Shown piece after piece: positions 23,411 to 26,048 of a stretch of DNA of 64,000 bases (position 1 is its first letter; each line of letters begins with the position of its first letter). Location: assembly GCA_963770895.1 (NCBI GenBank), contig CAVYRF010000002.1:2976001-3040000 (forward strand), given 5' to 3'. Made by a program: the position numbers and the translations under genes. The DNA is from an uncultured Acidobacteriota bacterium (GTDB lineage Bacteria > Acidobacteriota > Thermoanaerobaculia > Multivoradales > UBA5704). A model generated the notes under the pieces. It worked only from the letters and a program-made list of their open reading frames with translations, made no database searches and was not told the origin of the DNA.

Positions 23411-23938
23411 TCAGCCGCGGGCGGCGTCGTGCTGCAGGCGGGCGATGGTGCGGGAGGCTTCTTTGCGCACCGAGTCGGTGTGGCGGCCGATGCGGTTGCC
23501 GATCTCGCGGTAGTTGAGACCGAGCCAGCGCAGGGCCAGGACGCGGTTCTGGTGCACCGACAGGTCCTGGGCGAGGCTTGCCAGGTCCAGGCGACCTGCC
23601 AAATCGGCTTCGCGCGCCGGCGTCGAACCCGCCAGGGCGGTCAGCACCCCCGGATCGACCTGTGCCACATGGCGCTGCTGGTAACGGCCCGCGATATAGG
23701 TGGCGCACCTGCGGCGGACGATGCCGAGAAAATAGAGTTCGGGGCAGCGGATGTCGTGCCACTTGAGCAGCAGGGCCAGGAAAGCATCCTGTAGCAGGTC
23801 CTCCGCATCCTCTGGCGGCACTCCATACGACCGCAGGACGCCGCTCACCCGCCGGCCCGCCTGCGCCACGAACACTTCGAACTCCGCGGCTGGGAAGGAG
23901 GGGGGTGCCGGCGTTGCCTCGTTTGGCAGTGCTGTCAC
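23411..23938 (-). CDS. ECF-type RNA polymerase sigma factor
   Basis: Region 2 DAEDLLQDAFL; region 4 HTH LSVHQNRVLALRWLGLNYREIGNRIG...SVRKEASR. Confidence 0.82.
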   Translation of the reverse strand: MTALPNEATPAPPSFPAAEFEVFVAQAGRRVSGVLRSYGVPPEDAEDLLQDAFLALLLKWHDIRCPELYFLGIVRRRCATYIAGRYQQRHVAQVDPGVLTALAGSTPAREADLAGRLDLASLAQDLSVHQNRVLALRWLGLNYREIGNRIGRHTDSVRKEASRTIARLQHDAARG

Positions 23939-24094
23939 TAACGGTGGTCTCGTACCGGCTGCAAGATTACCTGAATCGATAATAACTTACCCGATTCGTC
24001 TCCCGAATGTCGACAGCCTTAACTTCCTCTGTTGGGGGCTCCGTGTCGCGGGCCTCGATGGCCAGCGCCTTCCTGCTCCCAGAAAGAGGCTTGT

Positions 24095-24385
24095 ATGACC
24101 GTTCGCCGCCTTGTCGTCGTAATCCTCCTCGCTTTGCTGGCCGTCGTTCCCGCCCAGGCCAAGGGTCAGGGCGCCGCGCCCCATGCCGCTTGGCCGTTGT
24201 GGACCGAGCTGCTCGATCGCGGCAGAGCGTTTTTCGCCCTGCTCGGCAACCCCGTCGATGGCGTCCGCCGCGAGGTGACGCGGCCGGCGCCGGCGGCAAC
24301 GACCACCGCCGCCGGATCTTCCGGCGGCGGCTCGGGCGCACAGGGCGACAGCTCAGGCGCCATGGACCCGGACGGCGCACTGTAG
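24095..24385 (+). CDS. Small secreted precursor protein (96 aa) ending in GDSSGAMDPDGAL
   Basis: AGAAAGAGG RBS; signal peptide MTVRRLVVVILLALLAVVPAQA; amphipathic WPLWTELLDRGRAFFALL; low-complexity linker; polar C-terminal tail. Confidence 0.75.
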   Translation: MTVRRLVVVILLALLAVVPAQAKGQGAAPHAAWPLWTELLDRGRAFFALLGNPVDGVRREVTRPAPAATTTAAGSSGGGSGAQGDSSGAMDPDGAL

Positions 24386-24409
24386 GTCTGCTGGTTGCAA
24401 TACCGCGGA

Positions 24410-24429
24410 GCGCCGGCGTAAGCCGGCGC
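24410..24429 (+). terminator. Perfect hairpin downstream of the peptide gene
   Basis: GCGCCGGC-GTAA-GCCGGCGC; no clear U-tract. Confidence 0.4.
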
Positions 24430-24692
24430 GCTGCCTTGAACCTGGAGTTGCGTTTTGCGCGTCTCCGGCGTCGGCGAGATCCACCGCGGAGCCAGCGCGT
24501 TTCCAATCCCTTCTCGATGGCGGCGGAGGTCGCGGCATCGCGCGCTCGAGCTCTTGCGTACCGTGCCGGTGAGCGTTTTTTAGCCTCATTGGGCGCATTT
24601 TATTTCCTGTCCGGAAAATCGCTGAAAAGCAGACTCTTCTGGTGATGCTGTCGCGCAACGGCGCGATGCTGAAACCGTGGGAGGAGTTCTGC

Positions 24693-26048
24693 ATGGTGGA
24701 TGACGGGCACTTTTCGCCGGAGCTGTTCCGTCGCTTTCTGGCCGGCGACGTCAGCCGCAAGACCGCCGCCCGGATCGTTGGGCACCTGATCCGCGGCTGC
24801 GAGGACTGCGGCGTGCTGGCGCAACGTCTGGCGGCGGAGACCGGAACCTGGCATGGCACGACCGGGGATGCGGCGCCGAGCGAAGACACCGATTACGCAG
24901 CCGCCTTTCGGCGCGCCGTGGAATTCGCCAGCCCCGAGCGCCGGCACGCCGCGCTGGAACGGCTCCGCGGCTGGGGGCAGTGGGCGTCTGTCGAGCCTTT
25001 CTCGCCGGAGCAGCGGATCTCCATCCTGCTGTCGGACGCATCGATGTACACCCGCGGGTTTCATGAGCGCCTGTTGGAAGCAGGCCGCATCTGCCAGCGC
25101 AGCGATCCGGCGAGCGCCGTGGCCGTGTTGGAGCTGGCGGTGATCGTCGCCGAGAAGATTTCTCACGTCGACAACGGTAAGGCGCGTTCCGATCTGCTTG
25201 CCGTGACTTTCGGCCATCTCGCCAACGCCAAGCGCCTGGCCAGCGATTTTGGCGGCGCCCGCGCGGCCTTCAAGGTCGCCTGGGAGCACGCAGGCGACGG
25301 GCACCGTGAAGTCTCCTGCGTCGCCCGCCTGATGACGTTCGAGGCAAGCTTGCTGGCCGATCTGGGGGACTTCGAGACCGCCGAAGCTTCACTGTCGGAG
25401 GCGCTGCTGCTCTATCGCAGCTCGCGGGATCATCATCAGGAGGGCCGCACGCTGGTGAAGATGGCGGCGGTGATCGGTCACGTCTCGCCGGAGCTGGCGC
25501 TGGATCACGTGCGCGATGCCTTGCCGCTCATCGATCGCAAGCTGGAGCCGCGTCTGGAGCTGTGCGCCAAACACAACTTTGCGTGGTTCCTGGCTTCGGC
25601 CGGCAAGGCGGAGGAGGCGCTGACGGTGCTCGACGACACGCGGCCCCTGTACCGCCAGTTTCCCGATCCCTGGACGCAGCTGCGGCTGCACTGGCTGGAA
25701 GGGCGCATCGCCCGCGCGCTCGGCCGGCTGGGCGACGCGGTGCCGATCTTTCAGCGCCTGCAGGAGGCGCTGCAGGTTCGCCAGGCACACCACGAAACGG
25801 TCCTGGTTTCGCTCGACCTTGCCGAGGCCCTGGTCGCCCGCGGCGCCTTCGAGGTGGCGGTGCGCGTGGTGCGGGAAGTGCACCCGGTCATGGCCGGTTG
25901 GCGACTCCACCGCCACCTGCTCGCCGCCTGGCTCCTGCTCCAACAAGCCCTGGAGCAGCGCCAGCTCGATGCCCTGTTCAACAACCTGCAGCTGTACTTC
26001 CGCCGCCACTGGCACCAGCCCGCCGAGTTCACCCACGGCGCCTCCTGA
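24693..26048 (+). CDS. TPR-repeat protein with N-terminal zinc-finger anti-sigma-like (zf-HC2-like) motif
   Basis: GGGAGGAG RBS; HFSPELFRRFLAGDVS...VGHLIRGCEDC; TPR-like helices (GHLANAKRLASDFGGARAAF, LGDFETAEASLSEALLLY, HNFAWFLASAGKAEEAL, LEGRIARALGRLGDA); no TM segment. Confidence 0.8.
   Translation: MVDDGHFSPELFRRFLAGDVSRKTAARIVGHLIRGCEDCGVLAQRLAAETGTWHGTTGDAAPSEDTDYAAAFRRAVEFASPERRHAALERLRGWGQWASVEPFSPEQRISILLSDASMYTRGFHERLLEAGRICQRSDPASAVAVLELAVIVAEKISHVDNGKARSDLLAVTFGHLANAKRLASDFGGARAAFKVAWEHAGDGHREVSCVARLMTFEASLLADLGDFETAEASLSEALLLYRSSRDHHQEGRTLVKMAAVIGHVSPELALDHVRDALPLIDRKLEPRLELCAKHNFAWFLASAGKAEEALTVLDDTRPLYRQFPDPWTQLRLHWLEGRIARALGRLGDAVPIFQRLQEALQVRQAHHETVLVSLDLAEALVARGAFEVAVRVVREVHPVMAGWRLHRHLLAAWLLLQQALEQRQLDALFNNLQLYFRRHWHQPAEFTHGAS

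Follow-up and report, generated by a model that had tools for sequence, protein, structure and literature searches.

The window analysed here is a 64,000-nt stretch of the genome of an uncultured Acidobacteriota bacterium (GenBank assembly GCA_963770895.1, contig CAVYRF010000002.1, positions 2,976,001 to 3,040,000), within which positions are counted from the first letter. Three genes adjoin at 23411–26048: a gene for an extracytoplasmic function (ECF) sigma factor of 175 aa on the minus strand (23411..23938), a gene for a 96-aa peptide precursor on the plus strand (24095..24385) and, also on the plus strand, a gene for a 451-aa tetratricopeptide repeat (TPR) protein whose N-terminus resembles a zinc-binding anti-sigma (ZAS) domain (24693..26048; hereafter the ZAS-TPR gene). 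Read from sequence, the module suggests peptide signalling connected to a sigma factor. The initial annotation had described three adjacent genes set amid polysaccharide genes, and all three were recovered at or near the positions it gave, with polysaccharide-type flanks that encode an Acyl_transf_3 protein, an NAD epimerase, two GT4 glycosyltransferases and an FkbM methyltransferase.

The gene calls were checked by guanine–cytosine (GC) content at the three codon positions, which supported all three genes and rejected the overlapping frames. For the precursor the values were 0.75/0.60/0.80, which is gene-like, against 0.69/0.67/0.62 for the overlapping alternative frames, and a Shine-Dalgarno sequence, AAGAGG, lies 6 nt 5' of its ATG. 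The open frame of the TPR gene extends from a GTG at 24642; the start chosen was the ATG at 24693, which is preceded by the Shine-Dalgarno sequence GGGAGGAG and matches the N-termini of homologues. Homologues were labelled Thermoanaerobaculia or Acidobacteriota.

Gene neighbourhoods were compared across 76 loci fetched by TPR similarity, eight of which were fetched twice and four of which lacked upstream DNA. A small same-strand open reading frame (ORF) with the motif DP[DN]G was present just upstream of the TPR gene in 57/76 loci, which shows that the pairing of peptide and TPR genes is conserved. In a search of the whole genome with a hidden Markov model (HMM) of the peptide, 15/18 matches, all of the top 13 included, were located within 1.5 kb of a TPR paralogue. 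The motif itself is rare: among 78,648 ORFs of 40–260 aa in this genome, 16 had DP[DN]G no more than 10 residues before the stop, and ten of these 16 were within 1.5 kb of a TPR paralogue, a distance that takes in about 2.8% of the genome. No conserved neighbour besides the peptide and the sigma was found in more than 10 of the 76 loci. The conserved unit is thus a peptide gene, a terminator and then a ZAS-TPR gene.

In the precursor, the signal peptide is followed by an amphipathic stretch that contains Trp, and a linker of Gly/Ser/Thr/Ala then leads to the tail DSSGAMDPDGAL, so that every part named in the initial annotation (Sec-type signal, Trp amphipathic stretch, low-complexity linker and DPxG tail) could be read in the 96-aa ORF. 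The Sec-type signal peptide (residues 1–22, MTVRR...PAQA; 24095..24160, plus strand) was recognized by an n/h/AQA layout, and the same n/h/AxA layout was read in 40 automatically recognized unique precursors. From the precursor alignment, the helix region was placed at W33–G51 (24191..24247, plus strand) and the C-terminal 10-residue unit, DSSGAMDPDG, at D85–G94 (24347..24376, plus strand), followed by AL and the stop; the C-terminus accordingly reads GAMDPDGAL. The NPVDG that follows the helix is possibly a degenerate first unit.

The same architecture recurs throughout the family. Forty unique full-length precursors of 86–106 aa were found automatically, each made up of a signal peptide, the Trp helix, a first unit directly after it and a Pro/Thr/Ser linker leading to the last, C-terminal unit. 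Precursors carry one to three unit copies (two or more in 36/44, three or more in 9/44), and the consensus from 89 units is [DKE][GS][RSH][GAS][TGS][MI]DP[DN]G, with D91, P92 and G94 of the window precursor invariant in 40/40. Mean pairwise identity was 0.57 for the last unit, compared with 0.18–0.28 for the spacers and 0.28 for the helix; the DPxG tail is therefore conserved, as the initial proposal requires, and is the best-conserved part of the peptide family. Units within one precursor were more alike (3.65 of 6 positions) than units from different precursors (2.34 of 6), and Cys pairs flank some of them. Compared with Pfam and NCBIfam the peptides matched no consistent family, the best being TrbC with 5/40 members. 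Readings of the DPxG unit as a ribosomally synthesized and post-translationally modified peptide, as part of a toxin–immunity pair or as a Ca-binding repeat were rejected, there being no modifying-enzyme, transporter or immunity-type gene as conserved neighbour.

The spacer between the peptide and TPR genes (24386..24692, plus strand) contains terminator-like hairpins at about 24413–24462 and 24559–24571 together with a T-run. At 307 nt it is long relative to the usual 105–160 nt. A GC-rich hairpin (CGCCGGC-loop-GCCGGCG) followed by a T-run was located about 45–70 nt past the peptide stop in 38/43 loci. A terminator in this position predicts that the peptide transcript is short and abundant and that expression of the TPR gene depends on read-through or on a promoter of its own.

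A promoter- or operator-like block, TAACTTCCTCTGTTGGGGGCTCCGTGTC (24020..24047, plus strand), lies in the divergent intergenic region about 70 nt 5' of the peptide ATG. Related blocks were seen in other loci: CACT[GC]T was present in 23/23 aligned 5' regions, about 65–75 nt upstream of the peptide ATGs, and the sigma-linked operons described below have a G[TCA]AAC-N5-8-TTRRGAG block at a like distance upstream of their peptide genes; these blocks were read by eye rather than with a statistical motif model. ECF, sigma-70 and sigma-54 spacings were tried by eye for the upstream block and did not fit, and a sigma-70 promoter scan gave 0 sites. A GC-rich hairpin 3' of the block in the 5' untranslated region gave single-sequence folds with a mean z of -2.0 against mononucleotide shuffles, 11/23 being below -2. 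RNAalifold recovered only two pairs from the 23 aligned 5' untranslated regions, the alignment being out of register, and conserved RNA structure is not claimed. An Rfam scan of 23300–26300 at E ≤ 1 returned no match.

No signal peptide or long hydrophobic stretch was seen by eye in the TPR protein. Its full-length AlphaFold2 model, with a predicted local distance difference test score (pLDDT) of 90.3, consists of a three-helix N-domain, a disordered linker at residues 53–69 and about 20 TPR helices. The superhelix formed by these helices (residues ~65–438; 24885..26006, plus strand), which is also recognized by TPR_12 at E 1e-11, is a putative ligand-binding sensor domain. Its best fold matches were TPR proteins that bind peptides or degrons, namely LGN/Pins and APPBP2 (Z 22), Rap (Z 19–21; 8rte_B 20.8) and NprR (4gpk_A, 20.2), and the resemblance to the latter two, which are peptide receptors of the RRNPP type, spans about 300 residues. 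MalT, PlcR and AimR came lower among the fold matches. Taken together, the modelled fold fits a peptide receptor and is not specific to one. The Pfam matches were generic only (TPR_12, TPR_MalT), and a search of PDB sequences with the whole TPR profile returned only generic TPR proteins (LGN, Pins, SNAP) and no RRNPP member.

The window protein belongs to a large paralogous family. Fifty ORFs of the 8.16-Mb genome matched it, and the family was found in 38 of 41 related genomes, with about 15–42 copies in most; a profile search at E ≤ 1e-30 gave 1,985 cluster representatives. Among 151 sampled genomes of the phylum, with 11 candidates scored per genome, three had matches at E ≤ 1e-15: this one and two others from its order. 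In all ten ZAS-less paralogues examined, the N-terminal domain was a Pfam HTH_3 (XRE) helix-turn-helix (HTH). When these ten HTH_3-matching paralogues were used to build an HMM, the 50 ORFs divided into 21 with the ZAS motif only, 22 with XRE-HTH only, none with both and seven with neither, the last being fragments or partial matches. Peptides of the family were located beside eight ZAS-headed, six HTH-headed and one fragment TPR ORF.

Some individual loci of this genome show further arrangements. Clusters of XRE-HTH and TPR genes, some with two HTH copies, were observed at C2:2881179-2883051, C2:493491-497527, C2:500305-504864, C2:1822245-1829335 and C2:4268197-4271990, and small ORFs in such clusters end in Cys-flanked DPNG or DPYGG. 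The ORF at C2:4269678-4270247, between two HTH-TPR genes, has several C-x-DP[DN]G-xx-C repeats. One in-frame TAG breaks the coding sequence of a close ZAS-TPR paralogue at C1:659100-660665 (43% identical); no DP[DN]G ORF was seen upstream of it, and this copy is probably decaying.

The three-helix ZAS-like (zf-HC2) domain (24693..24842, plus strand) has putative zinc ligands at H6, H31, C36 and C39, so that all four ligand positions of a ZAS domain are occupied. The motif HLIRGCEDC (residues 31–39, 24783–24809) places the last three with the spacing H-x4-C-x2-C. The four residues were invariant in 48/48 N-termini, which share the zf-HC2-like pattern (W)H(I/V)xEELLxRFLRxExSxEExxxVVRHLLxGCxxC, and this invariance of putative ligands and helix pattern indicates that the domain is under selection. 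Most relatives have the spacing H-x4-C-x2-C, and the canonical H-x3-C-x2-C is present in 3/21 ZAS-type paralogues of the genome. The motif with either spacing (H-x3-4-C-x2-C) was present in 21 of the 50 TPR-family ORFs compared with 91 of 5922 (1.5%) other ORFs of 400–900 aa in this genome.

Comparisons of the N-domain by profile and by structure pointed in the same direction. The Pfam family matched by most members was zf-HC2 (14/48, best E 3.2e-4, with the relatives judged by E rather than by gathering score). The top PDB profile match was ChrR (E 0.22), in which the counterpart of the ligands reads H...H-x3-C-x2-C; the four ligands were aligned with a one-residue gap. The N-domain modelled alone had a pLDDT of 76, and the top five Foldseek rows were four chains of ChrR and RsiW (E 0.9–2.3), the best, 2z2s_D, having a TMq of 0.64 and a root-mean-square deviation of 1.8 Å over 47 columns. 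The VIA-align top 50 out of 48,161 chains included MucA, RsiW, RslA, RskA, PupR, RseA and ChrR (Z 3.1–4.4). These weak signals agree, and on sequence and model we regard the N-domain as a divergent ZAS (zf-HC2) anti-sigma domain. The ZAS-like reading of the HxxxxCxxC motif in the initial annotation is accordingly retained, with ligands invariant in all 48 N-termini and with ChrR and RsiW as the best, weak matches.

The sigma gene was identified by matches to Sigma70_r2 (32.7 bits, cut-off 24) and to TIGR02937 sigma70-ECF (45.3 bits, cut-off 42.9). Its protein has regions 2 and 4 only, together with ECF-model matches, as is characteristic of ECF (sigma-70 group 4) factors; its region 4 (Sigma70_r4_2) scored 16.6 bits, under the cut-off of 25.7. 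A phmmer search gave six close paralogues (E 4e-21 to 4e-13) before the next ECFs at E ≥ 0.002, which defines a subfamily of seven copies in the genome. Five of these seven were within 5 kb of a ZAS-TPR gene, compared with none of the 40 other ECF sigmas of the genome. Seen from the TPR side, an ECF sigma was present in 7/76 loci, and six of these seven were close relatives of the window sigma. Sigma linkage is therefore a minority state, yet specific to one ECF subfamily. The three-gene linkage put forward at the outset stands only for this minority of loci, the two-gene peptide/TPR cassette being the conserved unit; the tie between sigma and ZAS-TPR holds in that a single ECF subfamily recurs beside ZAS-TPR genes, often in operons.

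Operons in the order peptide, sigma and ZAS-TPR on one strand were found at eight loci in eight genomes, often as longer runs with extra sigma copies, in a selected sample of 15 loci picked for sigma/TPR adjacency plus four from this genome. The genome's own operon of this kind is at C2:5716541-5719525. The peptide tails in these loci were GIDPNG(G), IDGNG, MDDNG and IDDNG. The layout of the window, with the sigma divergent from peptide and TPR genes, recurred at five loci in four genomes, and comparison of the relatives' sigma and TPR match lists showed many adjacent pairs among more distant paralogues. In 41 relatives, whose relatedness keeps them from counting as independent, the TPR family was accompanied by the sigma subfamily (E ≤ 1e-10) in 36 and occurred alone in two; neither was present in three, and in none did the sigma occur alone. 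Two subfamily sigmas, C1:797913-798545 and C2:1250026-1250751, had no ZAS-TPR or peptide gene within about 2.5 kb.

Peptide–TPR complex formation was predicted for the closest orthologue, whose TPR protein is 52–54% identical to that of the window, with its own 36-aa leaderless peptide; this pair was chosen because its peptide has both of the conserved elements and lacks a long linker. The complex score was 0.46 (runs of 0.45, 0.49 and 0.46) compared with 0.01 for the best control, with a partner pLDDT of at least 42 and a contact agreement of at least 44%. The mark used for this score was reached by 58/80 solved complexes and 2/110 mismatched pairs, and seven of those 80 scored 0.60 or lower. 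Binding of the peptide by the TPR domain, as first proposed, thus gains weak support from the orthologue pair, in the weak band of the score. Co-variation was examined by Mantel tests on 37 peptide/TPR pairs, in which the unit gave r 0.30, the signal peptide 0.40 and the helix 0.52 (each p 0.0005). Of the peptide regions, the helix follows TPR divergence best, and the correlations can be explained by shared descent. The co-variation of tail and TPR that the initial annotation had named as a check was not found to be tail-specific, the unit ranking below both the signal peptide and the helix.

Other features of the window lie outside the module. Directly 3' of the TPR gene, at 26177–27038, two genes overlap by about 20 nt, one encoding an SRPBCC/AHSA1-like protein and the other an ArsR-type HTH protein; this pair is unrelated to the surrounding polysaccharide genes. 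A 308-aa ORF at 22346–23272, between the epimerase and sigma genes, had no Pfam match at E ≤ 0.1. The stretch at about 10000–16000 has a GC content of 0.58–0.60 compared with 0.65–0.77 in the rest of the window and may be a foreign segment.

We tentatively favour a reading of the module as a peptide-gated anti-sigma factor, RRNPP-like in logic, which could well be right. The module would then be one copy of a paralogous peptide/receptor family in which the ZAS domain of a soluble 451-aa anti-sigma factor holds the neighbouring ECF sigma or a member of its subfamily, and in which the TPR superhelix acts as sensor. The ligand would be what the upstream gene encodes, namely an amphipathic helix with one to three units ending in (M/I)DP(D/N)G, or a processed unit of it. 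This product is mostly Sec-led and would probably be exported, trimmed and taken up again, and its binding would alter the hold of the ZAS domain on the sigma and so switch the sigma regulon, possibly including peptide genes. Sigma binding, peptide binding, export and re-import, and the direction of the switch are what we infer here; for export and re-uptake the grounds are the signal peptides, the Cys-flanked units and two SBP_bac_5 binding proteins in the genome, the last of which do no more than permit uptake.

Several observations weigh against this reading. No sigma was present near the ZAS-TPR gene in 69/76 loci or in 17/21 copies in this genome. The N-domain of the window protein had no zf-HC2 match at E ≤ 1, its H-x4-C spacing departs from the H-x3-C of canonical ZAS domains, and each anti-sigma profile or structure match was individually non-significant (E 0.2–2, Z ≤ 4.4). 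The TPR fold matches are generic, with LGN, APPBP2 and MalT as high as Rap. The receptor is predicted to be cytoplasmic and the peptide to be exported, so an uptake step must be assumed. Export is in turn not universal, because the three closest orthologues of the window TPR are paired with leaderless peptides of 27–36 aa that consist of the helix and one unit. The secreted propeptide of the initial annotation is thus supported by signal peptides in most precursors and contradicted by these three. The DPxG unit differs little among paralogues, which leaves little room for specificity, and the 37 pairs tested gave no co-variation with the TPR that was specific to the tail. The complex prediction scored within the weak band, with an uncertain fold for the partner itself.

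The absence of tail-specific co-variation is also what would be expected if the protein were an anti-sigma factor whose peptide is an output of the regulon rather than a ligand. The TPR domain would then sense another protein or a small molecule, and a membrane-active, adhesive or metal-binding peptide would be encoded nearby through co-regulation only. The cationic, Trp-containing amphipathic helix of the mature peptide would suit such a role, a promoter-like block precedes peptide genes in sigma-linked and orphan loci alike, and the terminator found between peptide and TPR genes in 38/43 loci implies transcripts that are at least partly separate. However, the one-to-one pairing of peptide and TPR genes holds without a sigma (57/76 loci compared with 7/76) and beside HTH-headed paralogues, for which a direct relation between peptide and TPR is the easier explanation, and the complex prediction, at 0.46 against 0.01, was weakly positive. 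We consider a regulon output unlikely on balance. A switch that operates inside the cell or is coupled to secretion, like ExsE/ExsC or FlgM, is more unlikely still. Here the TPR domain would bind the unexported precursor or a leaderless peptide, and its export or turnover would free the TPR protein toward the sigma, with no re-import and no cell-to-cell signalling. The cytoplasmic receptor, the missing signal peptides of the three closest orthologues, the helix as the region that tracks TPR divergence best (Mantel r 0.52) and the use of a leaderless peptide in the weakly supported complex are all consistent with such a switch. Most precursors nevertheless have canonical signal peptides and carry extra C-terminal units behind Pro/Thr/Ser linkers, and the Cys pairs round some units suggest disulfides made outside the cytoplasm. 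RRNPP systems include leaderless pheromone precursors (SHP, ComS), and a missing leader is therefore no argument against signalling.

The scarcity of sigma genes near most copies, together with the non-canonical spacing, would be accounted for differently if the zinc domain no longer bound sigma in most copies, the few sigma-linked loci being ancestral relics and the pair serving as a peptide chaperone or escort or as a competition/immunity pair. The 21 ZAS-TPR genes outnumber the seven subfamily sigmas of the genome about threefold, and the cassettes are dispersed, with unrelated genes on either side. This account is improbable given that ligands and helix pattern are invariant in 48/48, as expected of a domain under selection, that the sigma subfamily is distributed among genomes in parallel with the TPR family, and that the HTH-headed paralogues show the TPR family in use with transcription outputs.

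If the peptide-gated reading is extended to the whole family, this diderm Acidobacteriota order would have dozens of parallel peptide-pheromone circuits per genome, with one TPR family fused to XRE-HTH or to ZAS. With ZAS as the fused domain, the protein would be the first anti-sigma factor gated by a peptide, and many receptors of this form would act on few ECF sigmas. We regard this extension as doubtful but conceivable. Its interest is in a candidate signalling system with a cytoplasmic TPR peptide receptor in a diderm soil phylum, in which one sensor family is predicted to serve two transcription outputs, DNA binding by HTH or sequestration of an ECF sigma. With 1,985 representatives and 15–40 copies in most genomes of the order, the family is large, yet public annotation of its proteins is only TPR or hypothetical.

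The initial annotation had suggested a combination not known to be described, and no description of the ZAS-TPR/peptide family was found in the literature searched. The closest known counterparts on the output side are the ZAS factors (ChrR, RsiW and RslA; zf-HC2, PF13490), with which the protein shares a helical N-domain with a distal His and an H...C-x2-C cluster. Genes for ZAS factors likewise adjoin an ECF sigma gene or share an operon with one, although most copies here are not beside a sigma. ChrR, the best match to the N-domain by both sequence profile and Foldseek, is a soluble protein with a C-terminal sensor domain, and the protein of this module is also soluble with a putative sensor at its C-terminus. 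The differences are the H-x4-C-x2-C spacing, the presence of only three helices before a disordered linker, a TPR sensor of about 370 residues and the pairing of copies with a small peptide gene. ECF sigma activity is coupled to a TPR domain in ECF42-type sigma factors as well, which excerpts of PMC7826278 describe as having a fused C-terminal TPR extension and no anti-sigma factor; in the coupling predicted here, a ZAS-type protein distinct from the sigma carries the TPR domain, and the module includes a peptide gene.

On the sensing side, the module resembles the RRNPP pairs Rap-Phr, NprR-NprX, PlcR-PapR and AimR-AimP in having a cytoplasmic TPR receptor encoded beside a small propeptide gene, whose product is exported, or in some cases leaderless, and is conserved C-terminally. 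Further likenesses are the strong expansion of paralogues, the XRE-HTH-headed paralogues of the same TPR family and, as in Rap, a small helical N-terminal effector domain on a flexible linker. Tandem pheromone copies occur in some RRNPPA propeptides according to excerpts of PMC11343458, and tandem unit copies are found here as well. Unlike in RRNPP systems, the module occurs in an order of diderm Acidobacteriota, its output domain is of anti-sigma type and the peptide gene is upstream with its own terminator, with a conserved unit that is nearly the same across paralogues. No homology to RRNPP proteins was detected at the sequence level in Pfam and PDB profile searches. RRNPP peptide quorum sensing is described as a trait of Firmicutes/Bacillota in excerpts of PMC10075063.

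The ZAS-TPR family, by analogy, would work like both an RRNPP pair and a ZAS factor and falls outside strict membership of either. Strict ZAS membership fails because the spacing is non-canonical and the matches non-significant. For RRNPP(A), the module has the cytoplasmic TPR receptor and an adjacent propeptide gene with an export signal and lacks an HTH or Rap-type effector, detectable homology to known families and a Bacillota host. The RRNPP-like analogy drawn at first is thus strengthened by the 22 XRE-HTH-headed paralogues of the genome, which are also found beside peptides. Remote structural homologues used as an outgroup could help to root RRNPPA, as excerpts of PMC12700828 put it, and the present TPR family could serve as this missing outgroup. 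An HTH-TPR gene with an adjacent propeptide gene represents the RRNPP architecture, in which the ZAS-headed form would exchange DNA binding for sequestration of a sigma factor.

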